A stretch of 64,000 bases of DNA from Myxococcota bacterium (GTDB lineage Bacteria; Myxococcota_A; UBA796; UBA9615; JAKLKC01). Location: positions 21,953-85,952 of the forward strand of contig JAKLKC010000015.1 in assembly GCA_023150875.1 (NCBI GenBank), given 5' to 3'. The notes under the pieces are model-generated. The model was not told the origin of the DNA and did not search any database. It worked only from the letters and a program-made list of their open reading frames with translations. The translations under genes and the position numbers were made by a program. Each line of letters opens with the position of its first letter. The stretch's first letter is position 1. Positions 15,694-32,603 of this stretch are shown here, one piece after another.

Positions 15694-17661
15694 ATGAACC
15701 AGCCCGCACCCCCCGAAGGGCGCGGCGGGGCGCGCGCCGTCGCCGTCGCCGCCCTGATCGTCGGCGTCCCTTGGGCCCTCCTGGAGGTGGCCGCGTTCGC
15801 CCGCCGCACGAGGCTGGTCTTCGGCGCTGGCGACGTCCCGGCCCTGCTCGCGACGGACCTGGCCCTCTGCACCGCGGCCGCCCTGGCGGGGGCCGCCGCG
15901 GGCGCGGGGATCGGTCGGGTGCTCCGCCGTCCGCGGGCCGCGGGCCTGGCGATCGCCGGTGCCCTCGGCGCCGCCACCGGCGTCTTCTTGCTGTCGGTGC
16001 TCCTGAGCCAGCCCATCCCCGGCCGGGACACCCACGTGGTGCCGGGCGGCACGCCGGTGGCGGTGGCGATCTCCGCCGGCGTCCCCCTTGCCGCCCTCGC
16101 CCTTGCGCTGGCGGTGGGTCCGGGCAGGGCCCTGCTGGGGGGCTGGGCGCTGGCCCTGGCCGCCGCCCTCCTGGCGTACCCGCCTCGTCCCCCCACGTTC
16201 CAGGCGGGTGAGGCGGCCGCGGACGCCCCGAACGTCCTGCTGGTGACCATCGACACGCTCCGGGCCGACCACGTCGCCACCATCGGCGGAGGTCCGCCGG
16301 ACGTGCGGACCCCGAACATGGACCGCCTGGCGGGCGAGGGCGTGCTGTTCACCCAGGCGTTCAGCCAGGCCCCCATCACCGGACCTTCCCACACGTCCAT
16401 GCTCTCGGGTCTCTACCCCTGGACCCACGAGACCCTGATCAACGGCGTGGCCCTGAAGCCCGGGATCCCCAACCTCCCCGAGCAGCTCGCCGGCAGGGGC
16501 TATCGGACGGGGGCCTTCGTCTCGGCCTACGTGCTGGACGGGGACTTCGGATATGGCCAGGGGTTCGACACCTACGACGACGAGTTCTACGCGGTGAAGG
16601 GGCTCTACGACACGTCGCCCATGCGCCTGTGGTACCAGCTCCGCATCCGCCTGTGGCTGGTGGACGACATCGAGAGGCGGGGGGACCGGACCACCGACGA
16701 GGCGCTCCGGTGGCTGGACCTGAACGGCGACCGCCCGTTCCTGGCGTGGGTCCACCTGTACGACCCCCACGGCAACTACGTCCCGCCGCCCCCCTACGAC
16801 ACCATGTACTACAACGGGGATCCGAGGGATCCGGGCAAGAACTCCATGCCCCCCAAGGAGAAGCTGGCGCTCTACTCCCAGGAACACCTCGACGGGATCA
16901 CCGACGCCGAGTGGGTCCTGGCCCAGTACAAGGGGGAGGTGACCTTCACCGACCACCAGGTGGGGCGCCTGCTCCAGAAGATCGAGGACCTGGGCGTGAA
17001 GGACCGGACCATCGTGTACCTGGTGGCGGACCACGGGGAGAGCCTCACCGAGCACGACTACTGGTTCAACCACGGCGCCCTGCTCTACGACCCCGACCTC
17101 CACGTGCCGATGATGGTGCGCTGGCCGGGGAAGATCCCGGCGGGGACGCGGGTCGATTCCCTCGCGGAGGTCACCGACGTCACCCCGACCCTGCTGGACC
17201 TGCTGGGCGTCCCGCCGTGGGACATGAAGGGGCGCTCCCTGAAGCCCCTGTGGGAGGGGACCCGTCCCCCCGTGACCGAGACCGACTCCATGTGCTTCGA
17301 CCGCGAGGCGAACCGGCAGGGTGGCATGTGGCGCTACAAGATGGTGTCCACCCGGACCGGCACCTCCCGGTACGTGTGCCGCCAGCAGGGGAAGGACGAG
17401 CTGTACGACCTGACCTCCGACCCCGAGGAGACGGTGAACGTCGCCAGCGACCCGGAGCGGGCCGCCCTGGTGGCGGCCTTCGAGGAGCACTGCCAGGCCG
17501 TCCTCGACAGCACCGGCAAGGGCGCCGACGACCGCGCCAACGAGTCCCTCACCATGACCGCCGAGCAGTGCGAGAAGCTCAAGGCGTTGGGCTACGTGGA
17601 CAACGACACCGACTGCGGCGCCCTGGGTACCCCGGGCTCGGCGGCGGCGGGGAGCCGCTGA
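15694..17661 (+). CDS. Membrane-anchored sulfatase-like (alkaline phosphatase superfamily) protein
   Basis: N-terminal TMs; PNVLLVTIDTLRADH, QAPITGPSHTSMLSG, WVHLYDPH, ADHGESL, ELYDLTSDPEE, LKALGY. Confidence 0.9.
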   Translation: MNQPAPPEGRGGARAVAVAALIVGVPWALLEVAAFARRTRLVFGAGDVPALLATDLALCTAAALAGAAAGAGIGRVLRRPRAAGLAIAGALGAATGVFLLSVLLSQPIPGRDTHVVPGGTPVAVAISAGVPLAALALALAVGPGRALLGGWALALAAALLAYPPRPPTFQAGEAAADAPNVLLVTIDTLRADHVATIGGGPPDVRTPNMDRLAGEGVLFTQAFSQAPITGPSHTSMLSGLYPWTHETLINGVALKPGIPNLPEQLAGRGYRTGAFVSAYVLDGDFGYGQGFDTYDDEFYAVKGLYDTSPMRLWYQLRIRLWLVDDIERRGDRTTDEALRWLDLNGDRPFLAWVHLYDPHGNYVPPPPYDTMYYNGDPRDPGKNSMPPKEKLALYSQEHLDGITDAEWVLAQYKGEVTFTDHQVGRLLQKIEDLGVKDRTIVYLVADHGESLTEHDYWFNHGALLYDPDLHVPMMVRWPGKIPAGTRVDSLAEVTDVTPTLLDLLGVPPWDMKGRSLKPLWEGTRPPVTETDSMCFDREANRQGGMWRYKMVSTRTGTSRYVCRQQGKDELYDLTSDPEETVNVASDPERAALVAAFEEHCQAVLDSTGKGADDRANESLTMTAEQCEKLKALGYVDNDTDCGALGTPGSAAAGSR

Positions 17662-19577
17662 TGGGCGCGTCCCGACTGGCGATGGGCGGAGCGGTCGCCG
17701 GGCTCGGCGCGGGGACCCTGGCCCTCGGGGCCTGCGTCGCCGCCAACCCGTGGTTCGCCGACGCGCCGGCGCTGGCCGTCGCCCTCTTCGGGCTGCTGCC
17801 CGCGGCCGGGGGCGCGGCGCTCCTCGGCGCCGCCGGCCTCGCGGCCCGCCGCGGTGGGGCGGCCTCCCCGAGGCGGGGGCGGGGCCCCGCGGCCTTGGCG
17901 GTCCTGTCCATCGCGCTGGTCGGCCTGGCGGTGTCGGGCACCCTCGTCCCCCGCCCCCCCTTGCACACGAAGATGCTCGTCTACGGCGTGGACGCGGCGA
18001 ACCTGGCCCTCATGGAGCCGATGATGAAGGCGGGGGAGCTCCCTCACTTCTCGCAGCTCGTGCGGGAGGGGGCCCACGGCACCCTCAAGTCCATGGAGCC
18101 CGTGATCAGCCCCGTGGTGTGGACCAACATCGCCACCGGGTATCCCCGGGAGCAGCACGGGATCTCGGGGTTCAAGACCCGCTCCGACGAGTGCCTGAAG
18201 CCGAGGATCTGGGACTACTTCGCCGACAAGGACCAGGTGGTGGGTACCTACAAGTGGCTGGTGACCTGGCCTCCCCAGGAGGTCACCGGCTTCCAGGTGC
18301 CGGGCTGGCTCGCCCAGGGCGCCGAGACGGTGCCCGAGGACCTCGGCTTCGTGAAGGAGTTCGAGCTGGGCAACCGCCAGAGCCACGACCGCAAGGGCCA
18401 CGACGCCTCCGGCCTGGGCTCCCAGCTCGCCTTCGTCCGGGAGGGGATCCGCCACGGACTCCGCCTGTCCACCCTCGCCTCGGCCGTCGGGTTCATCCTG
18501 AAGGCGAAGCTCGCCCCGGTCACGCCGGACGAGGGCTTCTACCGGATGAACGTCATCCGCTCGGCCATCGACCGGGACGTCTTCCACGGCCTGCTCGATC
18601 GCTTCGACCCCACGCTGGCGACCTTCACCTACTACCCCACCGACAACGTCACCCACCGCTTCTGGAAGTATTTCGAGCCCGAGGGCTTCCCCGACGTCAC
18701 CTCCGAGCAGGTGGAGCGCTTTCGGGACGTGGTCCCCGAGACCTACCGCCAGGCCGACCAGATCCTGGGGGAGCTGCTGGCGCGATTGCCCGCGGACGCC
18801 CACGTCGTGGTGGTCAGCGACCACGGGATGACGTCGGCCAACGCCGGCGGGGGATACTTCGCCTTCGGCCTGACCACCGGCGGCATCCAGCGCTTCCTGG
18901 CCGGGCGGGGCGCGAAGGTCGACGTTTCGAACATCGGCCAGAAGGTGTCGGTGGGGATCGCCAAGGACAGCCCCCTCGACGCGGCGGCGGTCGAGGCCGC
19001 CATCGGCGAGCTGACCTTCCGGGACCAGCCCCTGGTGAAGGTCGACGTCATCGATCCCGGCGGCCCCGGCACCCCCCCCCTCCTGGGCTTCTCCCTGGCC
19101 GTCCTGGACGACCTCCGGGCGGACATCGAGGCCGGCCGGCGGATCCAGGTCTCCGGGCAGGAGGGGCCGGCCCTCTCGGAGATGGTGGCCACCGTGGAGG
19201 CCCAGTCGGGCGTCCACACGCTGGACGGCGTGGTGATCGCCCGGGGACCGAAGGTCACCCCCTCGCCCGGCCGCATGGCCGACACCACCATCCTCGACGT
19301 GGCGCCCACGGTCCTCGCCCTCGCCGGGTTGGCCCCCGCCTGCGACATGCCGGGGAAGGTCATGCCCTTCTTCGGAGGTGCACCTCCCCCCTGCGACCCC
19401 CACGCCGAGGCCGTCGCGCTGGTGAACCGGGAGTGGCGGGAGGTCGGCCGGGACGCCGCCGGCCAGGCCGCCGTGGACGACATGCTCATCAAGCTCGGCT
19501 ACAAGACCGAGGGCACGCCCGGTGCCGGATCCGGCGCGGAGCCGGCGGGTGGTTCCGCCGGTGCCCCCACCCCGTGA
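17661..19577 (+). CDS. Alkaline phosphatase superfamily (nucleotide pyrophosphatase/phosphodiesterase-like) membrane protein
   Basis: N-terminal TMs; VYGVDAA, ISPVVWTNIATG, VVSDHGM, SGVHTLDGV, DVAPTVLAL, LIKLGY; ATG overlaps the upstream TGA. Confidence 0.85.
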   Translation: MGASRLAMGGAVAGLGAGTLALGACVAANPWFADAPALAVALFGLLPAAGGAALLGAAGLAARRGGAASPRRGRGPAALAVLSIALVGLAVSGTLVPRPPLHTKMLVYGVDAANLALMEPMMKAGELPHFSQLVREGAHGTLKSMEPVISPVVWTNIATGYPREQHGISGFKTRSDECLKPRIWDYFADKDQVVGTYKWLVTWPPQEVTGFQVPGWLAQGAETVPEDLGFVKEFELGNRQSHDRKGHDASGLGSQLAFVREGIRHGLRLSTLASAVGFILKAKLAPVTPDEGFYRMNVIRSAIDRDVFHGLLDRFDPTLATFTYYPTDNVTHRFWKYFEPEGFPDVTSEQVERFRDVVPETYRQADQILGELLARLPADAHVVVVSDHGMTSANAGGGYFAFGLTTGGIQRFLAGRGAKVDVSNIGQKVSVGIAKDSPLDAAAVEAAIGELTFRDQPLVKVDVIDPGGPGTPPLLGFSLAVLDDLRADIEAGRRIQVSGQEGPALSEMVATVEAQSGVHTLDGVVIARGPKVTPSPGRMADTTILDVAPTVLALAGLAPACDMPGKVMPFFGGAPPPCDPHAEAVALVNREWREVGRDAAGQAAVDDMLIKLGYKTEGTPGAGSGAEPAGGSAGAPTP

Positions 19578-20659
19578 GGGTCCTGGTCGCCTCCCGGCGC
19601 TTCCCCCCCGACGTCCGCAGCGGCACCGAGACCGTCGTCGAGAACCTCTGGCGGCGCTTCTCCCAGCACCACGAGGCCCGACTGGTGGCGGGGTTCCGCC
19701 ACGACCCGGCCTTGCTGCCCGACGGGGCGCGGAAGGTGGACCTGAGGGGGGGGAAAAAGCTGGCGAACTACCTGAAGCTCCAGGGAGCGGTGGCCGCCGA
19801 GGCCCTGAGGTTCCGCCCCGACGTGGTGCTCGCCAACTCCATCGAGGTGCCCACCCGCTTCGCCCCCACCGTCACCATCCTGTACGACTTCAACTTCGGC
19901 GGGGGCCAGGCGTCCAGCGGGCCCCTCTCCCAGGCCAAGAAGGCGTACTACCGCTACAAGACCGGGCGGATGACGAGGGGGGTGGCGATCTCCCGGGCCA
20001 CCCGGGACCGAGTGGTGGAGCTTGGGGTCGATCCCTCCCGGATCGAGGTGATCTACCCCGGGGTGGACACCGAGCGGTTCCGGCCCGATCCGGCGGTCAC
20101 CCTCCCGGCGGCGGGGGGTGGGCCCATCGTGCTCGCCTACCCCTCCCGCATCCTCGCCGGCAAGGGGCAGCACGTCGCCATCGAGGCGGTGAAGGGGCTT
20201 CCCGACCGGCTCCGGGAGAGGGTGGAGCTGCGGATCGTGGGGGCGGCGACGGATCCCGACTACCTCGCCCAGCTCCGGGAGAGGGCGAGGGGAGCGAACG
20301 TCACCTTCCACCTCGACGTGCCCGACATCGAGAGGTACTACCGCGAGGCCCACGTCGTGCTCTTCCCCACGTGCATGGAGGAGGGTTTCGGCTACACCGC
20401 CATCGAGGCCATGGCCTGCGGCAAGCCGGTGGTCTTCAGCCGGTGGGCGGCCGTGGAGGAGGCGACGGGGGGGATCGGCGTGCCGGTGCCCCAAGGGGAC
20501 GTCGGCGCTTTGGTGAAGGCGATCCTGGCCCTGCTCAAGGATCCGGAGCGCTGTCGGGAGTTGGGCGAAGCCGGAAGGAGGCACGTCGTCGAGAACTACT
20601 CGTGGGACGCGATCTTCACGCGGTATGAAACGGTGGTGCGGGAGGCGGCGGGCGGGTGA
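19574..20659 (+). CDS. Glycosyltransferase family 4
   Basis: MRVLVASRRFPP, VIYPGVDTERF, EEGFGYTAIEAMACGKPVV. Confidence 0.93.
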   Translation: MRVLVASRRFPPDVRSGTETVVENLWRRFSQHHEARLVAGFRHDPALLPDGARKVDLRGGKKLANYLKLQGAVAAEALRFRPDVVLANSIEVPTRFAPTVTILYDFNFGGGQASSGPLSQAKKAYYRYKTGRMTRGVAISRATRDRVVELGVDPSRIEVIYPGVDTERFRPDPAVTLPAAGGGPIVLAYPSRILAGKGQHVAIEAVKGLPDRLRERVELRIVGAATDPDYLAQLRERARGANVTFHLDVPDIERYYREAHVVLFPTCMEEGFGYTAIEAMACGKPVVFSRWAAVEEATGGIGVPVPQGDVGALVKAILALLKDPERCRELGEAGRRHVVENYSWDAIFTRYETVVREAAGG

Positions 20660-20688
20660 GGGCCCCCCCCAGGGACGGAGCGCGAGGC

Positions 20689-21924
20689 ATGGCGGTGACC
20701 CGTTACGAGTTCAGCGAGGGCCGGATCGACGTCCACGAGGCCTGGCGCCCCGAGGAGGTCCGGGCCGCGGTCCGGCAGATCCTGGGCGACTGGAGCCACG
20801 TCCTGCCCCAGGCCCGGGACGCCCGGATCCTCATCAAGCCCAACCTGAACAACGACCTCAACGCCCTGACGGGCAACAGCGCCGACCTCCGGGTCCTGGA
20901 GGCCGTCGTCCGGGACCTGCGGGAGCGGGGCTACACCGACATCACCATCGCCGACGGCTCCAACGTGGGCGTCCACCGCCGGGGCATCGACTCCCAGCGC
21001 CGCCTCCGGGTCGACCGCCTCGCCGAGCGCCACGGGGCCCGGCGGATCGACCTCAACCGCGCCCCCACGGTGAAGGTGAAGCTCAAGAAGGGCACGGCCG
21101 AGCTCGCCCGGCCGGTGCTGGAGGCCGACTTCCTCCTGTCCATCCCCAAGGTGAAGACCCACGCCGAGGCGGGCCTCAGCCTCAGCATGAAGAACTGGGT
21201 CGGCACCGCCTCGGGCCAGCAGAAGCGCCAGATCCACCTGGACCTCAACCGGAACATCGCTGCCCTCAACGAGACCATCCGGCCCCACCTGATCCTGATG
21301 GACGCGCTGGTGGGCATGGAGGGCAACGGGCCGGGGGACGGCACGCCCTTCCGCATGGGGCGGCTCGTCGTCAGCAACAACACGTGGCTCCACGACATCT
21401 TCGTGTGCCGCCTGGTGGACTTCCCCTGGGAGAAGCTGCGCTACCTGGGCCACGCCCTGGACGACGGGCGCTTCCGGCCCGGCCTGCCGTCGGAGGTGGC
21501 GGCGAAGGTGCCGGTGCTGCGGAGGATCCAGCCGGCGCCGCCGCGGTCCTCCCTGGCGGTGCTCTCCGAGAAGAAGGTCTTCCATCCCCTCAAGCTGGCG
21601 GTGCGCCCCCTGGTGGACCGGCCCGAGGTCGCCCAGCTCGCCTACCGGGCGCGGATCGTCCAGGACGTGTACGTGCGCGAGGACGACGGCGTGACCGGCT
21701 TCGTGCGCGACGCCGCCCGCTGCGGCGAGTGCCGGAAGTGCGAGGAGTTCTGCCCCGACGCCCTTAAGCTGGAGGCCATCGGGACCACCGAGCGGGGCCA
21801 GGGCTGCCTCGCCTGCCTCTACTGCTACTGGGCTTGCCCGGGCGGCGCGATCTCCCTCCAGGGTCCGCTGGGGTTCCTCGCCCCCCAGATCGACAAGTAC
21901 AAGGCGCGCATCGAGGCGCTGTAG
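20689..21924 (+). CDS. DUF362 domain protein with C-terminal 4Fe-4S dicluster ferredoxin
   Basis: ILIKPNL, PKVKTHAEAGLSLSMKN, DALVGMEGNGP; CGECRKCEEFCP and CLACLYCYWACP. Confidence 0.9.
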   Translation: MAVTRYEFSEGRIDVHEAWRPEEVRAAVRQILGDWSHVLPQARDARILIKPNLNNDLNALTGNSADLRVLEAVVRDLRERGYTDITIADGSNVGVHRRGIDSQRRLRVDRLAERHGARRIDLNRAPTVKVKLKKGTAELARPVLEADFLLSIPKVKTHAEAGLSLSMKNWVGTASGQQKRQIHLDLNRNIAALNETIRPHLILMDALVGMEGNGPGDGTPFRMGRLVVSNNTWLHDIFVCRLVDFPWEKLRYLGHALDDGRFRPGLPSEVAAKVPVLRRIQPAPPRSSLAVLSEKKVFHPLKLAVRPLVDRPEVAQLAYRARIVQDVYVREDDGVTGFVRDAARCGECRKCEEFCPDALKLEAIGTTERGQGCLACLYCYWACPGGAISLQGPLGFLAPQIDKYKARIEAL

Positions 21925-22059
21925 GACCGGCCGGGCGCGGACGGGACGTCGCCCCCCGGGACGGGGGGGCACCCGCCCCTGTGCATGCCGGGTGCGCCGG
22001 CTTATCCCCATGCGCAGGGGGGTCGCGGACGGCGGCGGGGACCGGGCTCGGGGGAGATC

Positions 22060-22566
22060 TTGCCCGAGTCCTGGCCAGCGCCCGCGAGTCCTTCGGCCCC
22101 GCTCCTCCCACGGGGGAGCGCCCTCGCCCTCGCCGCCGCCCTCGCCGCCGCCGGTTGCGAGCCGGATCCGGCGGCCATCCTCGGCCGCTTCGAGGCGCGG
22201 TACGGCCCCTTCGAGAGCTGTGGGGCGATCCCCGCCGACCCGGAGCCCGGCGCGGAGGCGACGGCGGAGGCGGCCGACGCCGGAGGGGAGGGGAGCTGCC
22301 TGCTGGCGGGCTGGCCGGCCTGCGACGCGCGCTCGGCGGCCCGGGACGACCTGGACCCCCACGGTCGGGCCGAGGGGACCCACTGGTACCTGGTGTCCAC
22401 CGGTGGAGAGTGCGACGTCGTGGTGTTCAACCACGGCGCGGACGTGGCGGGCCGGACCTGGATGACCCGCACCCTGTGCGAGGACCTGGTGCCCCAGCCC
22501 ATCGGCGAGGTGTACCTGCCCTTCGCCCTCGACCGGTGCGGCCTGCCCGAGGACGTCCGTTTCTGA
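22060..22566 (+). CDS. Putative Cys-rich lipoprotein
   Basis: Lipobox LAAAGC; several further Cys; TTG start estimated. Confidence 0.6.
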   Translation: MPESWPAPASPSAPLLPRGSALALAAALAAAGCEPDPAAILGRFEARYGPFESCGAIPADPEPGAEATAEAADAGGEGSCLLAGWPACDARSAARDDLDPHGRAEGTHWYLVSTGGECDVVVFNHGADVAGRTWMTRTLCEDLVPQPIGEVYLPFALDRCGLPEDVRF

Positions 22567-22670
22567 CGTGGCCCGGGTCCTGCACGCGGGAGGTGTGGGG
22601 CCCGCGCGGGGCGAGGGATCGACCGCCGCGGGATCCGCGGTGGGGGCGCCGGCGACGGAAGGGGTGGGTG

Positions 22671-24419
22671 ATGCTTCCCCAGGCTGGCTTGAGGGCCGCG
22701 GTCGTCGGGGTGTCGCTCCTGGCGGCCCTGGCCTTCGGCCCCCGCGGAGCGGGACCGGCGGACGAGGCGTCCGACCGGGTCCACGAGGACCCGATCCTCG
22801 GCTTCCGGTTCCTGTACCCGGGAGACTGGAGGGCGCGGGAGGTCCGGGACATCGGGCCCCAGGCGGTGGTGGAGGTCACCGCCCCCGGGGGCGCCTCGTG
22901 GATCGCGGTGCACGCCGCCCGCTCCGTCGACGGCGCCTTCGCGGCGCGGCGGCTGCGGACCCGCATGGACGTGAGGTTCCCCGGCGCCGCCGCGGAGCTG
23001 TCCTCGGCACCCGTCACCATCGCCGACCGGCGCGTGGACCACACCCGGGCGGACGTGAGGACCGAGCACGGCCCGGGGACCCTGGACTTCTACGAGATCG
23101 ACGTGGGGGGGCGCTCGTTCCTCATCGAGTTCGGGACGCTGGGGAGGCGGCGCCCGGGGGCCGACGAGGCGAGGGAGCGGTGGATCGAGGCGTTCGAGGT
23201 GAGGCCGATGGGCCACGAGCCCCGGGCGCGGGACCCGCTGGCGGGACAGTGGGATCTGGTCACCGTATCCACCCTTCCCGGCCGCACCCCCGTACCCCTG
23301 GGCTGGACGGTGCGGACGGGAGATCCGGAGCAGGCGGGCCTGCTGGCGGAGATGGACGACCCGGCGGGGCTGCTGGCGTGGGAGATCTACAAGCCGGACC
23401 TCGTCTCGCCCTTCGAGGGCCCCTTCGCCCTCATGGACCGCCTCGTGGCGACGCTGGGGGTGCACGGCTTCGTGATCGGCGGGACCGGCAGCCGGCGGAT
23501 CGCCGGCCAGCGGCTGCCCTTCGCGGAAGGCTACTACCAGTTCCGGGACGTGCCGTGCCGGGTGGCGATCTACGCCTTCCGTAGGGACGGACAGATCCTC
23601 CTCGGCTACCTCTCCCAGGTGTTGCCGGTCTCCTCGGCGCTGGAGGGGGTGGAGGAGAGCTTCGTCGCCCCCTATCTGTCGGCCGGTCCGGACGGTGTGG
23701 AGGGGGCCCTGGAGCGGGCCCGGGAGGCCATGGACGCCGGCCGCGCCGAGGCCAGTCTGGCCATCGTCGAGGAGAGGCTCCGGGTCCTGCCCAACGAGCC
23801 CGAAGCGGTGATGATGCGGATCGAGGCGCTGTCGGACCTGGGCCGCCACGACGAGGCCACCGCGTCGGCGCGGGCGCTGGAGGCGTCCGCGGACGGGATC
23901 CCCGGCATCGAGGCCCGGGAGCGGATGGTCGCGGTCGCGCTGGTGGCCCGGTCCCAGGCCGCCGCCGGACAGGGGCGGCTGGCGGAGGCCCGGGCGCTGG
24001 CGCGGGCGGCGGTGGCCTCGTCCCCCGGGGCGGCGTCGCTGATCGAGGCCCGAGCGATGCGGCTGGTCTCGGCGGGGCGCGGGGACGCGGCGCGGGCGGT
24101 GGTGGAGGGCCCGCTGCTGGAGAGGCCCGAGGACCCGGCGCTGCTCCGGGGGATGGCGTGGGTGCTGGCGACGGCCCCCGGGGCCGGGGCGCGGGACCCC
24201 GGGAGGGCGCTGGAGCTGGCCCGGCGGGCCGTCGCCGCCCAGCCGGGCTCCTTCCTCGGGTGGCGGGCCCTCGCCGCAGCCCTCCAGTCGGCCGGCCGCC
24301 TCCAGGAAGCGGTGCGGGCGCAGGAGGCGAGCGTCTCCGCCGACGACCTCCGACCCGAGGACGCCGGCCGGGAGTGGGACCGCCTGCGGCGCCTGCGGGA
24401 GCTCGCCGGAGAGCCCTGA
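22671..24419 (+). CDS. Secreted protein with PsbP-like domain(s) and C-terminal TPR repeats
   Basis: Signal peptide; GFRFLYPGDW motif; TPR-like helices including MAWVLATAP...RDPGRALELARRAV. Confidence 0.65.
   Translation: MLPQAGLRAAVVGVSLLAALAFGPRGAGPADEASDRVHEDPILGFRFLYPGDWRAREVRDIGPQAVVEVTAPGGASWIAVHAARSVDGAFAARRLRTRMDVRFPGAAAELSSAPVTIADRRVDHTRADVRTEHGPGTLDFYEIDVGGRSFLIEFGTLGRRRPGADEARERWIEAFEVRPMGHEPRARDPLAGQWDLVTVSTLPGRTPVPLGWTVRTGDPEQAGLLAEMDDPAGLLAWEIYKPDLVSPFEGPFALMDRLVATLGVHGFVIGGTGSRRIAGQRLPFAEGYYQFRDVPCRVAIYAFRRDGQILLGYLSQVLPVSSALEGVEESFVAPYLSAGPDGVEGALERAREAMDAGRAEASLAIVEERLRVLPNEPEAVMMRIEALSDLGRHDEATASARALEASADGIPGIEARERMVAVALVARSQAAAGQGRLAEARALARAAVASSPGAASLIEARAMRLVSAGRGDAARAVVEGPLLERPEDPALLRGMAWVLATAPGAGARDPGRALELARRAVAAQPGSFLGWRALAAALQSAGRLQEAVRAQEASVSADDLRPEDAGREWDRLRRLRELAGEP
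24360..24419 (+). repeat. 60-bp direct repeat, copy 1 (last 20 codons of the TPR gene)
   Basis: GACGCCGGCCGGGAGTGGGACCGCCTGCGGCGCCTGCGGGAGCTCGCCGGAGAGCCCTGA; matches 25437-25496. Confidence 0.97.
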
Positions 24420-24566
24420 GCCCGGGTGACTCGCCGTCCGCCCTGCTGCGCGTGCCGATACCGCGGCTGCGGCCGGTCTACTCGGGTTCCGCCCGGTCAG
24501 AGGGGGTCACCCCGCACCGGCGCTGCGGGCGACCTCGGCGGGGGCCGAGGCCGTCTTCGGGCGTCT

Positions 24567-24626
24567 GCCGACGGGTTGTAGAGACCGACGGTCCACTGGA
24601 CCCTCGGCCGCGACACCCCGTTCGGC
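24567..24626. repeat. 60-bp imperfect palindrome with attC-like ends
   Basis: GCCGACGGGTTGTAGAGACCGACGGTCC-ACT-GGACCCTCGGCCGCGACACCCCGTTCGGC; arms pair over 28 positions with 4 mismatches, 1 G-T pair and 1 bulge. Confidence 0.6.
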
Positions 24627-24709
24627 TTCACCCCTCGCTCCACCGTGGGAGTCCCGGCCTCGCTCGCGGTCGCCGCCCGCTCGCAACGGGGCTCACGAAT
24701 CACCCGGCC

Positions 24710-25159
24710 TCAGTCGAGGTCGCCGGGCGCCGTCACGAACGGGCTAATCACGCGGAGTCCGCCGAACTCCTGCCCGGCTTGGAGGTCCTCCGTCAGGAGG
24801 AACCGGGCCTCGGTCGCCTGGGCCGCGGCCATGATCAGGGCGTCCCACCAGGAAAGTTTGAACCGGTCCTGGACCTTCCACGCCTGGAGCATCAGCGAGG
24901 AATCGATGGGGACGGGACTCCAGAAGAGGAGGCTCCTGACGTGCCGTCGCGCCAACTCGGGGGGCATGGGAGGCTTGAGCTTCCGGGTGACGACGCTGTA
25001 GTACTCGTTCAGTACCTGCTGGCTGACGCGGCCCCGCCGGTGGGTGGCGATGGACCTCAGCCAGGAGATGGACCTCGCCTGCTTCTCGGGTTGTGATTCG
25101 TCTCGCGCGTAGACGAAGACGTTCGTGTCAACGAAGACGGGTGTCATCGTCGCGGTCAT
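24710..25159 (-). CDS. vapC: PIN-domain toxin (VapC family)
   Basis: VFVDTNVFVY, VSQQVLNEYY, LSWWDALIMAAA, LLTEDL. Confidence 0.95.
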   Translation of the reverse strand: MTATMTPVFVDTNVFVYARDESQPEKQARSISWLRSIATHRRGRVSQQVLNEYYSVVTRKLKPPMPPELARRHVRSLLFWSPVPIDSSLMLQAWKVQDRFKLSWWDALIMAAAQATEARFLLTEDLQAGQEFGGLRVISPFVTAPGDLD

Positions 25160-25376
25160 GGACTTCGTCGCGCGTGGGGTAGCGTGGCGACTCGTGGAAG
25201 GACCACCCGGGGCTGTCGAAGAAGTCCCTCATCGCCTCATCGTAGCCCGACTCCTCGATCATGCACTTCTTCAGCAGTTCGCCGACGAGCTTCGAGATGC
25301 TCGAGTCGTGCTGCGCCGCCCAGACCTTGGCCCACCGAGCGACGTTCTCGTCCACGCTGATCGTGATGTCCTTCAT
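25128..25376 (-). CDS. Ribbon-helix-helix antitoxin (CopG/DUF6364-like, VapB role)
   Basis: MKDITISVDENVARWAKVWAAQHDSSISKLVGELL; directly upstream of and overlapping the PIN toxin. Confidence 0.88.
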   Translation of the reverse strand: MKDITISVDENVARWAKVWAAQHDSSISKLVGELLKKCMIEESGYDEAMRDFFDSPGWSFHESPRYPTRDEVHDRDDDTRLR

Positions 25377-25382
25377 GTCACG

Positions 25383-25411
25383 AAGCTAGTGTTCCACGAG
25401 TCCCGCGTCAA
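25383..25411 (-). promoter_or_regulatory. sigma70 promoter of the VapBC module, probably leaderless
   Basis: Minus strand TTGACG-17 bp-TAGCTT, then 6 nt to the ATG at 25376; no RBS. Confidence 0.7.
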
Positions 25412-25436
25412 TCGACGCCTCCCCCCCGACCCCTTG

Positions 25437-25496
25437 GATGCCGGCCGGGAGTGGGACCGGCTGCGGCGCCTGCGGGAACTCGCCGGAGAGCCCTAG
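25437..25496 (+). repeat. 60-bp direct repeat, copy 2
   Basis: GATGCCGGCCGGGAGTGGGACCGGCTGCGGCGCCTGCGGGAACTCGCCGGAGAGCCCTAG; differs from copy 1 only at GAC/GAT, CGC/CGG, GAG/GAA and TGA/TAG. Confidence 0.97.
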
Positions 25497-25500
25497 AGGC

Positions 25501-26067
25501 TCAGGGCTGATCCGCCGAAGCTCGGAGGCCGCTCTCCCCGGGCGGCGGGGGCCGAGATGTCTGGCGCCCCGCCGCGGGACCGGACTCTTCTTCCGGGCCG
25601 ATCTCGATGCCGAGGTCCAGCTCGATCGCTCCTGCTGCCTCGTCTTCGGGACCCGCTCCCGGAGCGCCGTCGGCGTCCGCCGGCTCCAGGCGCGGGTCCT
25701 CCGCGGGGGGCGGTGGCTCCCGGGCCGCGCGCAGCTCGTCGGCGAAGAGGCGCCGGAGGCGCAGGCGCCGGTAGTGGGCCCGCAACTCAGTGGAGGTGAG
25801 CCGGCCGTCGCCGTCGGCGTCGGCGTCGGCGAACGCCTCCCGCCCGGCCTCGTCGTCGCTGACCAGCCGCCCGCCGGCCGCTTCGGTGGGAGAGAGGCTC
25901 CCGTCCCCGTCGCCGTCCGCCCGGACCACGGCGGCCCCCGCGGGATCTCCGAAGCCCGGGTCCCCGGCGTCCACCGCACCGGGGGTACCGGCACCGGCGA
26001 TCCCGAGGACCACGGCCGCGAGGCGCGCATCGAGTAGACAGGACGGGCGGGGCGTGCGGTGTGTCAT
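25501..26067 (-). CDS. EF-hand domain protein, probably secreted
   Basis: Two canonical loops DGDGDGSLSPTE and DADGDGRLTSTE; hydrophobic N-terminus. Confidence 0.75.
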   Translation of the reverse strand: MTHRTPRPSCLLDARLAAVVLGIAGAGTPGAVDAGDPGFGDPAGAAVVRADGDGDGSLSPTEAAGGRLVSDDEAGREAFADADADGDGRLTSTELRAHYRRLRLRRLFADELRAAREPPPPAEDPRLEPADADGAPGAGPEDEAAGAIELDLGIEIGPEEESGPAAGRQTSRPPPPGESGLRASADQP

Positions 26068-26139
26068 CGGCGGTCCATTCCCCCTCCCGTCTCATCGGCG
26101 CGCGGCGGAGGGACTGGAGCGGGCGAACGCCGTGCGGGG

Positions 26140-29100
26140 CTACCTCCCCCCGAAGAGCAGGGGCTCGACGGCCTTCAGGTGGTCCAGGTTCGCCCGCGCC
26201 GCGGCGTTGTCGGGGTCGATCTGCAGGACCCGCTCCCATTGCCCCTTCGCCTGGTCGGGCCTCCCCTCCACCAGGAAGACCGTACCCAGGTTGCCGATGG
26301 CCGCCACGTCCTCGGGCGCGTCCAGGACCACCCGCATCAGCTCCGCCTTCGCCTCCCGCACCCTCCCGAGGTCCAGGAGGATCTGGCCCCTCAGGCTCCG
26401 GTAGGCCACGTCGTCCCGGACCACCAGGGCCCTCTGCACCTGGTCCAGCGCCCGCTGGAGGGCCTCGGGATCGGGGCGGGAAGGGTCCTCGCGCCGCGCG
26501 CTGTAGTAGTAGGTCTCGGCGAGGCCGGCCATGATCCGGTCGTCCCGGGGGGAGAGGGCCTGGGCGCGCCGGTAGCTGTTCGCCGCCTGGTCCAGCAGGC
26601 CCTTGGCCCGATAGACGTTGGCGAGGTTGTTCACGGCGTCCACGCTCGAAGGATGGGCGGCGGTGGCCTTCTCCAGGGAGGTCGCCGCGTCGTCCAGCCG
26701 GTCCTGGCGGCGCCGCGCGTCCGCGAGCCCCAGCAGCCCCACCAGGTCCAGGGGGCGGATCCCCAGGGCCTCCTCGAAGCGGGTCGCCGCCAGCTCGGCG
26801 TCCCCGGCGTGGAGGGCGATCCGCCCGAGGAGGAGCAGCGCCTCCACCTCCCGGGGGTCGATGGCCGTCGCCAGCACGAGCTGGGTCTCGGCCTCCCGGA
26901 GCTGGCCGGCCGCCAGGAGCGCCCGGGCTCGGGAGATGAGCGTGCCGGTCATGGGGAGCAGCGCGGCCCCCGGAGCCGCGCCCCGGGCCAGCTCTCCGGA
27001 GAGGCGCAGGGCGGCGCGGGTGTCTCCCCGGGCCACCTCCCGGAGCAGGTCCAGCCACTTGGGCCGCACCGCGTCCTCCGCCTCCAGCCGCGCGTCGAGG
27101 GGGAGCCGGACCTCGTCGGGCAGGCGGGAGAGGTCGAAGAGGGACGCCACTGGCGGGGGATCGGCGGGGAGGGCGTCCAGGGCGGTGGGGCGGAGGCCCG
27201 AGAGGCGGTCCCGGGCCGCGGCGAAGGCGATCCTCGCCGCGGAGCCCCCACGGCTCCCCTCCAGCTCTCGGACCGCCACCACCGCCCGGGCCAGCAGGTC
27301 GGCGGGCTCCAGCACGCCCGAGGCCCGGAGTCCCCGGGCCGTGGCCGACCTCTCCTTCATCCGATACGCCGCCGCGGTCGCCTCGAACGGGCCGCCGCCG
27401 CCTCCCCGGGCCAGCAGGATGGCCTCGTCCCCGCCCGGACCCAGCCAGAGGAGGGCCTCCGGGTGGACCGCGGCCAGCCCCGCGGCGAGCCCGCCCAGCA
27501 GGTCGGGCCCGACCCCCCGGAGGGGAGCCCGCACCGCGAGCACGGCGCCGGGCGAGAGCCCCCGGGCCAGCGCCTCCATCCACGCCGCCGTCCACGCCCG
27601 CGCCCCCCCCGAGGCCCACGGGGCCGGGAGGTCGACGACCACCACGTCGTACGCGCCGGGCTCCGTCCCCACGGTCCAGGGATCCCCGGGCGCCAGCCGG
27701 ACCGCGGGGTGGCCCAGGGCGCGGGCCGCCTCCCCCGACCGGGGGAGCAGCCGGAGCAGCGCTGGATCCTCGACGACGCGCACGGACGCGGGATCCTCGG
27801 TCAGGACCGCCTCCAGCACCCCCGGGTGTCGCAGCCCGACGAGCAGGGCCCGGGACGGAGGCTCCCGGAACAGGAACGGGAGGTGCCCGAGGAAGGCGGA
27901 CTCCGCCGCCTCCTCCGGCCCGAGGGAGGTCGCGTGCCCGGCGTGCCAGAGCGTCTCGCCGAGCGCGCCTCCCCGGGTCAGCAGGGCGGGTCCCGCCGCG
28001 CCCCACGCCTCGCCGGCCAGTTCGGCTCCCCGCAGGTCCGCCTCCAGCCTCGCGAGGGACCCGGGATCGGAGGCGTGGAGGGCGGGGGACACGGCGGCGG
28101 TGAGGCGGGAGGGCAGGGGGAGGGACACGGCCCCGACCGCCACCAGCACCAGGGGCGCCAGCGTGGTCGCGATCCCGGACGGCCCCCGCGCCTCGGCAGG
28201 GCGCAGGGCGACGGACGCCAGGGCGACCGCTACGGCGAGGACCAGGAGGGCGAGGTCGGCGGGGACCCCTAGGGAGGGCAGGGTGGTCACGAGGACGCCG
28301 GCGAGGAGGCCGGCGGCGTGGAAGCGTCCCCAGGGCCGCGCCCCCAGGCAGGTCCCCCACGCGGCCCCCGCCGCCACCGGCCCGAGCGCCAGCGCCAGCC
28401 ACCCGATCCGGCAGGCGCTCGCCCACGACAGCCCGGGGGGGCCCAGGGAGGCGGGGTGGGCCAGAAGGGTGCCGGGGAGGGCGGAGAGCAGGGCGACGGA
28501 GAGGAAGAGGCCCAGGGCCGCGGCGGCCCATGGGGAGCCGGAGCCCCGTCCCGGTCGGCCGACCCTCATCGCCACCAGGAGGCCCACCGCCAGGCCGGGG
28601 GTGCTGGCCGCCGCGACCTCCAGGGGGAGGGAGGCCAGGGGCGAGAGGGCCAACCCCGCGAGGGGGAGCAGCAGGCCCGGCGCCGCGGCGGCGAGGGCAC
28701 CGGCGAGGAAGCCGGCGAGGGGAGGGGAGCCCGGGACCGCGGGGCGGGCGGCTGGCGGGGCGGCCGGGGTGGCGGCCATCCCGAGGGCGGCCAGGAGACT
28801 GACCAGGGGCCAGGGGACCCCGGCCAGCAGCGGCGGCGCGGCGGCCAGCACCACGCCCGCGGCGGCGATCCGGACGGGGGACGGAGGGGAGGGGCGCAGG
28901 GCCGGCGCCAGGACCGCGCCGGCGCCGAGGGCGAGCCCGAGCAGGACGATCCACTCGATGAAGGGCGAGATCCCCGCCGCCGCCACACCCAGCCTTCCGG
29001 CCCCCAGCACCGCCCAGGGCAGGGCCGCGACCCCGAGGGGAAGGACCCACCCCGGGGCCGCGACCCCCCGCGGGCGCGCCACGGCGGCGGCCGCCGCGAC

Positions 29101-29241
29101 GCAGGCGAGCTGCCAGGCCAGGACGGGGGAGGGGAACACCTCCACCGCCGCCGCGAGCGCCGCCGCGCCGGCCAGGCCCCACGAGGCCCCGCTGAACGCG
29201 GCCGCCCCGCGGGCCCCGAGCCATCGGACCGTCGGGCTCAC
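26140..29241 (-). CDS. Fused membrane (MFS-like)/spermidine-synthase-like/TPR protein
   Basis: About 10-13 N-terminal TMs; YDVVVVDLPAPW...GLSPGAVL; C-terminal TPRs (AVNNLANVY, AIGNLGTVF, DPDNAAARANL). Confidence 0.7.
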   Translation of the reverse strand: MSPTVRWLGARGAAAFSGASWGLAGAAALAAAVEVFPSPVLAWQLACVAAAAAVARPRGVAAPGWVLPLGVAALPWAVLGAGRLGVAAAGISPFIEWIVLLGLALGAGAVLAPALRPSPPSPVRIAAAGVVLAAAPPLLAGVPWPLVSLLAALGMAATPAAPPAARPAVPGSPPLAGFLAGALAAAAPGLLLPLAGLALSPLASLPLEVAAASTPGLAVGLLVAMRVGRPGRGSGSPWAAAALGLFLSVALLSALPGTLLAHPASLGPPGLSWASACRIGWLALALGPVAAGAAWGTCLGARPWGRFHAAGLLAGVLVTTLPSLGVPADLALLVLAVAVALASVALRPAEARGPSGIATTLAPLVLVAVGAVSLPLPSRLTAAVSPALHASDPGSLARLEADLRGAELAGEAWGAAGPALLTRGGALGETLWHAGHATSLGPEEAAESAFLGHLPFLFREPPSRALLVGLRHPGVLEAVLTEDPASVRVVEDPALLRLLPRSGEAARALGHPAVRLAPGDPWTVGTEPGAYDVVVVDLPAPWASGGARAWTAAWMEALARGLSPGAVLAVRAPLRGVGPDLLGGLAAGLAAVHPEALLWLGPGGDEAILLARGGGGGPFEATAAAYRMKERSATARGLRASGVLEPADLLARAVVAVRELEGSRGGSAARIAFAAARDRLSGLRPTALDALPADPPPVASLFDLSRLPDEVRLPLDARLEAEDAVRPKWLDLLREVARGDTRAALRLSGELARGAAPGAALLPMTGTLISRARALLAAGQLREAETQLVLATAIDPREVEALLLLGRIALHAGDAELAATRFEEALGIRPLDLVGLLGLADARRRQDRLDDAATSLEKATAAHPSSVDAVNNLANVYRAKGLLDQAANSYRRAQALSPRDDRIMAGLAETYYYSARREDPSRPDPEALQRALDQVQRALVVRDDVAYRSLRGQILLDLGRVREAKAELMRVVLDAPEDVAAIGNLGTVFLVEGRPDQAKGQWERVLQIDPDNAAARANLDHLKAVEPLLFGGR

Positions 29242-29465
29242 TGGTGGATCTCGCCTCCTGACGCCGGCGCACCGCCCGGCGGCGCCCTCGCCGACCCCGG
29301 AAGGGAGCGCGGAGCCAGGCGCACCCGGCGATCATACCCTCTCCGTCTCCGGCGGGCGGAGCGGGGGGGGCTCCCGCAGCCCCGGCGGCCGCACCCGGGC
29401 CGCGGGCCGCGCCCTACGGCTCCGGAGCACGAACGGTACGGCAACCTCGACGTTGCGCGTGCGCC

Positions 29466-29494
29466 TTGACACGGGTTTGGGTTCGCGCGACCAT
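29466..29494 (+). promoter_or_regulatory. Putative sigma70 promoter of the pilMNOPQ operon
   Basis: TTGACA-17 bp-GACCAT, about 210 bp upstream of pilM. Confidence 0.55.
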
Positions 29495-29704
29495 CGCCGC
29501 AGAGAAGCCGAAGGATCTAGCACTCTTGCAGGCCCCGGGGCGCCCTGATGCCCCCCGGGGGGGGCCCGCCTCGGCGATGTCGGGGTGGGGTCGACGGGAT
29601 CGGAGTCCCCTTTTTCTCGGGAACGCCCGTATCCTGTCTTCGTTCCGGGCGGGGCGGGAGACCCGCTGATTGCGGGCGTCGGAGCGGCGCCCGCGGAGGA
29701 CCGG

Positions 29705-30781
29705 ATGGTCTCGCTCTTCTCACGACCCAAGGGCACGGTGGGACTCGACATCGGGTCGAGCTACATCAAGGTGCTGGAGCTGGGGCCGAGCAAGGGCGGC
29801 CACGGGCTCGTCAACTTCGGCATGAAGAAGCTGCCGCCGGAAGCGATCGTCGACGGCGCCCTCATGAACTCGAACGTGATCGTCGAGTCGATCCGGGAGC
29901 TCCTCCAGACCCACCGCATCCGCACCAAGGACGTCGTCACCTCGGTCTCGGGGCACTCGGTCATCATCAAGAAGATCAACATGCCCGCCATGTCCCGGGA
30001 GGAGCTCGAGGAGTCCATCCAGTGGGAGGCGGAGCAGTACATCCCCTTCGACATCAACGACGTCAACATCGACGTGCAGATCCTGTCGAACGCCGGGTCC
30101 GACTCCGAACAGATGGAGGTCCTCCTCGCCGCCGCCAAGAAGGACATGATCAACGACTACGTCGCGATCATCCAGGAGGCGGGGCTCAACCCCGTGGTCA
30201 TCGACGTCGACTCCTTCGCCGTCGAGAACATGTTCGAGGTCAACTACGACGTCGACCCGGGGCAGACCGTCGTGCTGGTCAACATCGGCGCCAGCATCGT
30301 CAACATCAACGTGCTCCGGGGCGGCGCCACCGCCTTCACCCGCGACATCACCCTCGGCGGCAACCAGTACACCGAGGAGATCCAGAAGCAGCTCAACGTC
30401 AGCTATGAAGAGGCCGAGGCGCTCAAGATCGGCGGCGAGATCATCCGAGACGCCCAGGCGGTGGTCCCCGAGGAGGTGCAGGGGATCATCCAGAACGTCT
30501 CGGACAACGTGGCCACCGAGATCCAGCGCTCCCTCGACTTCTACACGGCCACGTCGAGCGAGGATCGCATCTCGAAGATCTACCTCAGCGGCGGCTCCGC
30601 CCGCATCCCGGGGCTGACCCGGACGATCCAGGCCCGCTCGTCCGTGGACGTTGAGATCGTCAACCCCTTCCGGCGCATCGAGATCGACGAGCGGAACTTC
30701 AACGTCGGATTCCTGAACGAGGTCGCGCCGATGGCCGCGGTCGCCGTGGGCCTCGCGCTCCGGAAGGCGGGCGACAAATGA
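29705..30781 (+). CDS. pilM: Type IV pilus assembly protein PilM
   Basis: VGLDIGSSYIKV, IQWEAEQYIPF, EIQRSLDFY, LSGGSA, VAVGLALR; start re-called at ATG 29705 (GGAGG RBS). Confidence 0.97.
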   Translation: MVSLFSRPKGTVGLDIGSSYIKVLELGPSKGGHGLVNFGMKKLPPEAIVDGALMNSNVIVESIRELLQTHRIRTKDVVTSVSGHSVIIKKINMPAMSREELEESIQWEAEQYIPFDINDVNIDVQILSNAGSDSEQMEVLLAAAKKDMINDYVAIIQEAGLNPVVIDVDSFAVENMFEVNYDVDPGQTVVLVNIGASIVNINVLRGGATAFTRDITLGGNQYTEEIQKQLNVSYEEAEALKIGGEIIRDAQAVVPEEVQGIIQNVSDNVATEIQRSLDFYTATSSEDRISKIYLSGGSARIPGLTRTIQARSSVDVEIVNPFRRIEIDERNFNVGFLNEVAPMAAVAVGLALRKAGDK

Positions 30782-31335
30782 TCAGGATCAACCTCCTCCC
30801 CGTCCGCCAGACCCGCAAGAAGGCGGCGGTCCAGCGGCACCTCGCCTATTTCGGGGTGGGACTGGTCGCGGTGGTTGCGGTCTGCGCCTGGCGCTTCGTG
30901 GGGATCACCCGCCAGGTGACCGCCGCCGAGACCGAGAACCGCGAGCTCCGCACGGAGATCGAGGACCTGAAGAGGATCGTCGGGAAGGTCGAGGAGTTCG
31001 AGAAGATCAAGCAGGAGCTGGAGAAGAAGCTCTCCGTGATCAACGATCTCCGGGCCCACAAGACCGGCCCCGTGCACGTGCTCGACGAGATCGCCACGCG
31101 GATCCCCGAGAAGCTCTGGATCACCTCCCTGGAGACCGCGGGGAACCGGATCAAGCTGTCCGGTCAGGCGGTGAACAACGAGACCGTGGCGACGTTCATG
31201 TCGAGCCTCGAGGACTCCGCGTACTTCGGCGAGGTCTTCCTGGAGAAGATCGAGCAGGCCGCGGAGAAGAGGGAGTCCGCCACCAAGATGAAGCTCTTCC
31301 AGGTGACCGCGGTGCTGAGGGTGCCGGGCGCGTGA
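30778..31335 (+). CDS. pilN: Type IV pilus assembly protein PilN
   Basis: MIRINLLP, TM, coiled coil, KLWITSL, VATFMSSLEDS. Confidence 0.96.
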   Translation: MIRINLLPVRQTRKKAAVQRHLAYFGVGLVAVVAVCAWRFVGITRQVTAAETENRELRTEIEDLKRIVGKVEEFEKIKQELEKKLSVINDLRAHKTGPVHVLDEIATRIPEKLWITSLETAGNRIKLSGQAVNNETVATFMSSLEDSAYFGEVFLEKIEQAAEKRESATKMKLFQVTAVLRVPGA

Positions 31336-31396
31336 ACCCCCGGCTCGACTCCTGGCAGGACGCAGGCGCCCGTTCCCGTAGCCGAGGCGAGCGACC

Positions 31397-32032: not shown

Positions 32033-32603
32033 GCGCGCTGTGGCGGAGGTCTCGCGGGCCGCGCGGGCGCGTGTTCCGGGGCTCCGCGCCGGGTTCGGGC
32101 TGATCTCGGTCCTGGTCCTCTCCTGGGGCTGCGCCGGAGGAGGCGGCGAGGGCGGGGGCGAGGACGTGGCGCCGAAGAAGCGGCGCGCCGAGGTCGACAA
32201 GGCCGCCGAGGCCTCCGCCGCCCCTCCCGTGGCCGAGGACTACAGCTACAACCCCATTGGCAAGAGGGACCCCTTCCGCTCCTTCATCGCCCGGGACGTC
32301 GTCGCCCCCCTGGACGCCGGCGAGCTGGGGCCCCTCCAGATGTGGGAGCTCGACCAGTTCCGCCTGGTGGCCATCGTGTGGGGGCAGGACCGCTCGACGG
32401 CGATGGTCCAGGACCCCGAGGGGATCGGGCACGTCGTCGAGGTCGGCACCCTCATCGGCAAGAACTGGGGGCGCGTGACCCAGATCAGGGCGGAGGAGCT
32501 GGTCGTCACCGAGGAATACCGGGACGAGATCGAGAACCGGCTGATCGTGAACGAGATCCCCGTCAAGCTGCCCTCGCAGGAGCAGGCGGGAGGTCGGGGA
32601 TGA
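32019..32603 (+). CDS. pilP: Type IV pilus assembly lipoprotein PilP
   Basis: LSWGC lipobox, YNPIGKRDPF, PLQMWELDQF, IGKNWGRV. Confidence 0.95.
   Translation: MEVSRRAVAEVSRAARARVPGLRAGFGLISVLVLSWGCAGGGGEGGGEDVAPKKRRAEVDKAAEASAAPPVAEDYSYNPIGKRDPFRSFIARDVVAPLDAGELGPLQMWELDQFRLVAIVWGQDRSTAMVQDPEGIGHVVEVGTLIGKNWGRVTQIRAEELVVTEEYRDEIENRLIVNEIPVKLPSQEQAGGRG

Follow-up and report, generated by a model that had tools for sequence, protein, structure and literature searches.

How chromosomal toxin-antitoxin (TA) modules move without a mobility gene is a long-standing loose end, and the locus described here raises the question in compact form. The window, a stretch of 64,000 nucleotides from a Myxococcota bacterium (positions 21953-85952 of the 111-kb contig C66 in a 6.9-Mb metagenome assembly of 180 contigs, G000; C-numbers below denote contigs of this assembly), holds a predicted VapBC module between two copies of the 3' end of a TPR-repeat gene. 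Where did the second gene end come from, and how did the module get between the two? Our preferred answer, to which we assign a probability of about 0.6, is that the locus is an insertion with long target duplication (ILTD) with a TA module as cargo: 1018 bp of foreign DNA, made up of an element resembling a miniature inverted-repeat transposable element (MITE) and of the vapBC operon, flanked by a 59-bp duplication of the host gene's own end.

The insert is absent from a sister lineage

Among 60 GTDB relatives we found no orthologue of the TPR gene, and the empty site came from Logan assemblies of sequencing runs. The contig L019 (23.8 kb; Logan assembly of SRR32236739) represents a sister lineage that is about 92% identical to the window. 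In a blastn comparison, window positions 14664-24417 matched L019 1-9747 (92.5% identity) and window positions 25436-33495 matched L019 9689-17749 (91.1%), the 59 bp at L019 9689-9747 aligning to both copies in the window. The TPR gene and a convergent EF-hand gene are 4 bp apart in L019, with no TA module, no MITE and one copy of the 59 bp, and the 1018-bp insert is the sole large indel in 17.7 kb. This confirms what an original prediction, made from the sequence of the window, had proposed, namely that roughly 1 kb had entered the TPR gene at its 3' end, and it supplies the empty allele which that proposal implied. The features of the locus are as follows.

22671-24419, plus strand: TPR-repeat gene, intact, 582 aa, with a signal-peptide-like N-terminus (open reading frame; Pfam TPR_19, TPR_16, TPR_14)
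24359-24417, plus strand: copy 1 of the repeat, coding, the end of the TPR gene (from the alignment of window 14664-24417 to L019)
24417-24712, no strand: MITE-like dispersed repeat, long form, about 290 bp (blastn of 24416-24714 against the assembly, alignment, scan for terminal inverted repeats)
24418-25435, no strand: inserted DNA, 1018 bp, GC 0.68 against 0.76 in the flanks (gap in blastn against L019)
24710-25159, minus strand: vapC, PIN-domain toxin gene, 149 aa (PF01850, E=6.7e-14)
25128-25376, minus strand: vapB-like antitoxin gene, 82 aa, DUF6364 (PF19891, E=5.2e-7)
25377-25435, minus strand: insert-borne region upstream of vapB, putatively promoter-like as read from the sequence
25436-25494, plus strand: copy 2 of the repeat, a non-coding relic joined to the native TAG, AGGC and the EF-hand stop (from the alignment of window 25436-33495 to L019)
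25501-26067, minus strand: EF-hand gene, 188 aa, the native convergent neighbour of the TPR gene (Pfam EF-hand_5, EF-hand_7, EF-hand_1)

A repeat search returned 24354-24417 and 25431-25494 (64 nt, 92% identity) as the longest direct repeat between 23000 and 27000; measured on the empty site, the duplicated target is 59 bp (24359-24417 and 25436-25494). Copy 1 contains the last 19 codons of the TPR gene, whose TGA stop lies at 24417-24419, and the translation, DAGREWDRLRRLRELAGEP and then a stop, is the same for both copies. From the end of copy 2 it is 4 bp (AGGC) to the stop of the EF-hand gene, as had been noted before, and the geometry is identical in the empty allele. Orthologues of the TPR protein share 93% of residues in L019 (P0001) and 54% in L020, and the length of 582 aa recurs in P0001, P0129 and P0130. 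L020 was not used as an empty-site reference, its downstream gene not being recognisably an EF-hand gene.

We considered whether there is no insertion scar at all, the two gene ends being an assembly artefact, a paralogue remnant or the template/variable pair of a diversity-generating retroelement (DGR). In favour of this, the metagenome assembly consists of 180 contigs whose ends carry 77-bp k-mer overlaps, and DGR-like repeat pairs beside reverse transcriptases do exist on C93 and C124. For this locus we regard such an explanation as very improbable. The contig L026 (8.7 kb; Logan assembly from SRR32236738), from a strain 99.2% identical to the window, carries the same insert in the order TPR - copy 1 - MITE - vapC - vapB - copy 2 - EF-hand on one contig, and the locus is therefore not an assembly artefact. 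The exact VapC was also present on six Logan contigs from five runs, each reading EF-hand - copy 2 - vapB - vapC and broken inside the multi-copy MITE, so that the right junction was seen in five run assemblies besides L026 and the junctions were reproduced in six independent assemblies in all. A DNA search of the whole assembly found the 59-bp repeat in two copies only, besides one 29-nt chance match, and tblastn with the peptide tail hit the same two sites, which rules out a paralogue remnant. As for a DGR template/variable pair, no reverse transcriptase was matched on C66 (the matches sit on C129, C93 and C124 only), and the differences between the copies are C/T, C/G and G/A, not adenine-specific.

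Both copies derive from the same lineage

The original prediction read the differences between the copies as the mark of a foreign replacement end that had diverged under protein-level selection. Its description of the differences holds: GAC/GAT, CGC/CGG and GAG/GAA are all silent third-position changes, accompanied by TGA/TAG stops. Its reading of them does not. Judged against L019 and copy 1, positions 3 (C>T) and 24 (C>G) of the repeat are derived in copy 2. At position 42 (G/A) it is copy 1 that is derived when L019 serves as the outgroup, and L026 has A there in copy 1 (GAA in both of its copies); GAG/GAA is thus a synonymous change private to the coding copy of this strain, as purifying selection allows. 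TAG is the native stop; copy 1 obtains its TGA from the native T and the first two bases of the insert, GA. Furthermore, GCC, CGG and CTC are common to both copies at codons where L019 has GCG, AGG and CTG. Because the copies share these three states against the sister lineage, both derive from this lineage's own sequence.

The ancestral copies were hence two substitutions apart, both in the non-coding copy 2, and the chance that both would fall on third positions is 1/9. At four-fold-degenerate sites the TPR gene has diverged by 0.19 from L019 and by 0.013 from L026, and two changes in 57 positions of copy 2 fit neutral decay since an event between these two splits. With this fit the evidence for recoding under protein-level selection disappears. 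The longest perfect match between the copies in this strain is 20 nt, which makes homologous excision unlikely now.

Direct repeats bracket other TA modules of the genome

A look across the genome for repeat-flanked TA units showed that the architecture is not confined to the window. Self-comparison (same-strand pairs of 35-400 bp, at least 85% identity, spacing 0.3-20 kb) gave 84 repeat pairs. PIN genes lay inside locus-specific direct-repeat brackets of at most 5 kb in 10 of 30 cases, with brackets making up 1.5% of the genome and 0.44 such genes expected (naive binomial P ~1e-11), and bracketed YefM/YoeB and AbiE modules were found in addition. Each bracket repeat is specific to its own locus, occurs in two or three genomic copies and measures between 42 and 383 bp. 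The clean cases, with their confirmed cargo, are the following.

C107: Phd/PIN; the 3' part of an efflux-pump gene is repeated beyond the module
C77: MazE/PIN; the repeat covers the 3' end of rlmB with the stop and the DNA that follows
C169: RHH/PIN; 66 bp, intergenic target
C151: YefM/YoeB; 76 bp, 99% identity, intergenic
C124: AbiEi/AbiEii; 383 bp

Inserts in the clean cases are 690-1018 bp long, with a GC content of 0.66-0.70 against 0.72-0.76 in the flanks. No junction motif common to the five clean loci was found; the word GCCCGGGTG at C77 was tried as a candidate and discarded, as it falls in the diverged end of the repeat. Repeats that differ from locus to locus over such a range of lengths, without a shared motif, argue against one site-specific recombinase.

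At C77 the duplication was confirmed through a second empty site. L067, a contig from the same run as L019 that we reached via P0251, a cluster mate of RlmB, has the order rlmB - larB - GCS2 without a TA module. C77 25133-28041 corresponds to L067 66-2971 and C77 28930-29880 to L067 2826-3770, which leaves an 888-bp MazE/PIN insert (28042-28929) flanked by a duplication of about 146 bp. The two copies are nearly identical and share many states against L067, and the dead copy carries a two-base change that would be non-synonymous. L036, a relative with a 72% identical RlmB, was rejected as an exact empty site because it is too distant and has no larB.

Between larB and GCS2, C77 holds a second TA module, RHH/PIN (29881-30960), which L067 likewise lacks and for which no duplication could be detected. 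A third insertion relative to L067 consists of an NhaA antiporter gene (32502-34034) with a junction overlap of about 15 bp. TA gain accounts for most structural divergence from the sister lineage at rlmB-larB-GCS2. Of all such insertions in the genome, the YefM/YoeB case (C151:15438-16279) is probably the youngest; its 690-bp insert lies between 76-bp repeats of 99% identity.

The insert joins a MITE-like element to a predicted vapBC operon

The left part of the insert is a MITE-like element, whose terminal inverted repeats (TIRs) at this locus are CTGAGCCCGGGTGACTCG and CGAATCACCCGGCCTCAG; the family consensus is GCCCGGGTTAYTCACCA, 17-19 nt long. By blastn it matched about ten other contigs (C165, C92, C167, C118, C42, C38, C171, C128, C130 and C55). 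The family has a short form of about 180 bp (complete at C38:1680-1855, C92:179551-179726 and C118:21109-21284) and a long form of 300-400 bp (C165:2910-3312) with about 116 bp of extra interior, here 24516-24631. Partial copies sit at the ends of C42, C130, C167 and C170, and many copies end contigs.

The palindrome that had been described as an attC-like hairpin lies within this long-form interior and is also present in the C165 copy; it belongs to the dispersed repeat and not to an attC site. An Rfam search of the MITE region gave no match at E<=1, and the fold pairs the termini with z = -1.5, no better than shuffles. An autonomous partner was sought as a TIR pair 0.8-2 kb apart, and none was found in the assembly; two DDE_Tnp_1 matches both lie elsewhere.

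Of the features by which a MITE is recognised, TIRs and about ten dispersed copies are present, and the three complete short copies (C38, C92, C118) have perfect 5-bp target duplications, TTGAA, CTCAG and TTCAA, of the form YTSAR. The long copies of the window and of C165 have no target duplication. Both run stop-to-stop between convergent genes, flanked by TGA to the left and by TCA to the right: in the window TGA is the TPR stop and TCA (24710-24712) the vapC stop on the other strand, and at C165 the flanking triplets are 2906-2908 and 3314-3316.

The remainder of the insert is a type II TA pair of the VapBC kind, for which toxicity and neutralisation are predicted. The match of VapC to PF01850 (53 bits) covers profile positions 1-111 of 120, and the acidic motifs can be read in VFVDTN, LNEY, WWDAL and LTEDL. 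The vapB and vapC genes overlap by 32 nt, and the pair was called in all Logan contigs. A complete promoter-antitoxin-toxin unit had been proposed; the antitoxin-toxin pair stands, and the promoter comes down to a sub-threshold match in which 17 nt separate TTGACG (25411-25406) from TAGCTT (25388-25383), the latter stopping 6 nt short of the vapB ATG. A consensus scan for sigma-70 promoters and terminators returned nothing at threshold.

The absence of a recombinase from the module had been claimed correctly. Profiles for tyrosine recombinases (PF00589), serine recombinases (PF00239), the DDE_Tnp_1 transposase (PF01609) and reverse transcriptases (PF00078) had no match on C66; assembly-wide they gave 7, 9, 2 and 3 matches, respectively, all on other contigs. 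The search for a VapC donor yielded no donor context; the closest relative outside this species was 59% identical, and the donor is thus unsampled.

A staggered break with fill-in is a likely route

How could a captured fragment come to be flanked by 59 bp of the host's own DNA? In our model a double-strand break with nicks about 60 bp apart would have staggered the TPR gene end, both overhangs would have been filled in, and a linear fragment, the MITE-like element followed by vapBC with its own upstream region, would then have been joined to the ends. On this reading the fragment was inserted within the TPR stop codon, after its T, and the 59-bp target was duplicated. Copy 1 keeps the TPR protein intact, with a stop rebuilt from the T and the GA of the insert, and copy 2, still joined to the native DNA downstream, decays as a relic. 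The event falls in this lineage, later than its separation from the 92% sister and earlier than that of the 99.2% identical strain. The comparisons above show the insertion, the duplication, the empty site, the origin of both copies in one lineage and the return of this architecture at other TA loci, whereas the route of the duplication and the reason for the clustering at TA modules are inferred. A staggered break with fill-in is likely and is the simplest route to an arrangement X-R-insert-R-Y in which R is of arbitrary sequence and length. Since the left end of the insert coincides with a MITE terminus, one fragment end may stem from transposase cleavage in the donor.

Survivorship could explain why such scars cluster at TA modules. 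If the repeats recombined, the module would be lost, the stable PIN toxin would be released from the labile antitoxin, and deletants would be killed. Other repeat-flanked inserts would collapse and vanish, while repeats around TA modules would persist long enough to be seen and to diverge.

Several points weigh against ILTD. The enrichment test is naive, for it ignores that TA genes gather in variable regions. Among about 25 PIN loci from 12 relatives, 1 had a flanking repeat within 1.5 kb, the lone case being L044 (G007:C66), with a PIN gene at 5565-5915 and a 37-bp repeat of 92% identity at a spacing of 845 bp; it is for this genome that we claim the bracket pattern. The TA activity of the module is a prediction from its sequence. 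How ILTD works is not understood even for restriction-modification (RM) systems, and the staggered break with fill-in has been deduced here rather than observed. The MITE of the window is bounded by TGA and TCA, without the matching 5-bp target duplication seen in the three short copies. Finally, the pattern of differences between the repeats also fits a single crossover between repeat positions 25 and 57.

The last two points each lead to a rival explanation. A crossover of this kind is what Campbell-type integration would produce: a circular DNA carrying vapBC, the MITE and its own TPR gene end would have recombined with the chromosome through an integrase acting in trans or through RecA, leaving attL (copy 1) and attR (copy 2). 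The circle could have been a copy excised from a close strain or what was left, after decay, of a larger recombinase-driven island. With L019 as the reference, positions 3 and 24 are native-like in copy 1 and its stop is non-native, and copy 2 is the reverse; this fits native left and foreign stop in copy 1, foreign left and native stop in copy 2. The recombinase matches on other contigs make action in trans possible. Yet with three informative sites chance would give an ordered pattern in about 3 of 16 cases, and the three lineage-specific states in both copies would require a donor of nearly the same lineage. Moreover, the genome lacks a third copy of the 59 bp, C66 lacks a recombinase match, the closest vapC elsewhere is 59% identical, and the analogous loci with their unrelated repeats cannot be explained by one site-specific enzyme. 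We therefore consider Campbell-type integration unlikely, if the more serious of the rivals.

The mismatch between the TGA and TCA flanks of the MITE may betray a secondary rearrangement of the left junction, as would follow from a two-step history. The TA fragment would first have truncated the TPR gene about 59 bp inside its end, and a wild-type 3' end from a relative would later have been patched in upstream by homology-facilitated illegitimate recombination, restoring the gene while the addictive module could not be removed. This too yields gene end, insert and gene end with copies from closely related genomes. It demands two rare events, and the same architecture occurs at the intergenic targets of C151 and C169 and, at C77, with a stop and downstream DNA, where no gene needed repair. 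We judge a two-step history improbable.

With ILTD as the preferred reading of the window, we tentatively extend it, at somewhat less than even odds, to the possibility that naked TA cassettes of 0.7-1 kb (VapBC, YefM/YoeB, AbiE and others) spread and persist in this myxobacterial lineage by recombinase-independent ILTD, a route hitherto linked to RM systems and the cutting of DNA by them. Were this true, the long duplication would be a general signature of addiction modules, either because only such modules survive between recombinogenic repeats or because break-repair machinery captures them preferentially, and MITE termini may sometimes supply one end of the fragment.

The footprint resembles that of RM systems

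ILTD was described by Kobayashi's group for RM gene complexes (Furuta, Abe & Kobayashi 2010, PMC2853133; Mruk & Kobayashi 2014, PMC3874152; and, as cited there, Nobusato et al. 2000, Gene 259:99). Such insertions have no mobility genes and are flanked by genome-unique direct repeats of more than 30 bp, both of which align to one copy at the empty site; the repeats often span the stop site and leave the target gene intact (PMC2853133). Their lengths are "in the order of 100 bp", and the mechanism is given as unknown, with double-strand breakage suggested (PMC2853133, PMC3874152).

Held against the definition of Furuta, Abe & Kobayashi 2010 (PMC2853133), the present locus has an empty site with collinear flanks, as has C77 against L067, and repeats of more than 30 bp that align to a single target (59 bp here, about 146 bp at C77). 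The repeat is not multi-copy, and the insert of 1018 bp is below 20 kb and has no integrase or transposase gene, although it holds a non-autonomous MITE. The definition also calls for R and M genes, in place of which we find a DUF6364 antitoxin and a PIN toxin. The agreement in structure is thus complete and the cargo alone departs from it, and we class the locus as behaving like ILTD with a new cargo, apart from the RM cases described.

In both settings a small addiction-type unit without a mobility gene lies between unique repeats that span the stop, the repeat length varies by locus, and the insert's GC content is unlike that of the flanks. The differences are threefold. The cargo is a type II TA module (elsewhere in the genome also YefM/YoeB and the type IV system AbiE) and not an RM system; the insert has at one end a MITE, which contributes two bases to the stop codon of the host gene; and the capacity of restriction enzymes to make double-strand breaks is not obviously applicable to a PIN RNase. 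In a literature search that was not exhaustive we found no report of the ILTD footprint at TA modules. What is new here is thus a TA cargo with a MITE at the junction, in a known but mechanistically unexplained class of events; the TA module itself is of an ordinary kind, and its insertion scar is what is instructive.

The empty and occupied sites come from co-occurring lineages and form a clean before/after pair, and C77 offers a second one. The two pairs show that the entry of a TA module can bring with it a target duplication of 59-146 bp that preserves the host gene, leaving a footprint as in RM systems. This suggests that the footprint is a property shared by addiction modules rather than by DNA-cutting nucleases. 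A locus-specific direct repeat of more than 30 bp around a TA unit of 0.7-1 kb is a simple genomic signature for dating and counting TA gains.

Other known systems resemble the locus in part. Integrative elements that target gene 3' ends, such as the phages and islands at tRNA and tmRNA genes and cassettes of the SCC (staphylococcal cassette chromosome) type at rlmH, likewise leave a gene end on both sides and a functional target, and satellite cassettes of such elements without a recombinase of their own exist. Unlike in these elements, the insert has no recombinase in or near it, no conserved core and no second element at the same site; the duplicated segment is the lineage's own, and the sister loci use unrelated targets of very different lengths. 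An att element driven by a recombinase was also considered for the locus and judged unlikely: besides the lack of a recombinase on C66, there is no third repeat copy, no shared motif and no separate history of the copies.

Integron TA cassettes also place a TA operon of about 1 kb beside a palindrome, the operon bearing a promoter in the cassettes and a promoter-like region here. The locus differs in that its palindrome is the interior of a MITE and its flanking repeats are host gene sequence. An integron cassette was rejected on the absence of an attC family, IntI and a cassette array, and of a tyrosine recombinase on C66. Insertion sequences of the IS1634/IS1549 type are autonomous, with a transposase and two defined ends, and make long target duplications of variable length. 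The long variable duplications are a shared feature, whereas the present insert has one transposon-terminus end only and no transposase. For annotation, the comparison carries a warning: relic gene ends of this kind are scars and not att sites, attC sites or DGR repeats.

Other repeat pairs and a chimeric relative

Some of the repeat pairs in the genome are ordinary, namely DGR template/variable pairs (C93, C124), repeats of repetitive-protein genes and 77-bp assembler overlaps. The last are 77-80-bp repeats of 98-100% identity that link contig starts (C91, C102, C107 and C137) to internal sites, with a further case at C103:177092/178737, and they represent assembler k-mer overlaps at unresolved repeats. 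The two likely DGRs, at C124:3138-5647 and C93:6997-9291, each comprise a reverse transcriptase, an open reading frame for an Avd-like four-helix protein and a repeat pair of 140-160 bp, one member of which lies in the 3' end of a gene of the FGE/SUMF1 type (GNVWEWC motif).

Single genes for ATPases of the AAA/DUF4143 type and one gene for a Uma2-like nuclease, recognised by eye from their motifs, are also bracketed by locus-specific repeats, here of 139-171 bp (C95:40848-42645, C125:113530-116006, C92:111256-112318). At C125 an internally deleted relic of the ATPase gene, likewise recognised by eye, lies beyond an RHH/PIN module.

In another public assembly, a metagenome-assembled genome at NCBI labelled Pirellulales bacterium, the 370-aa protein P0003 matches residues ~220-375 of the TPR protein at 99% identity before running on as a tRNA-guanine transglycosylase, which has the look of a chimeric contig or gene call.

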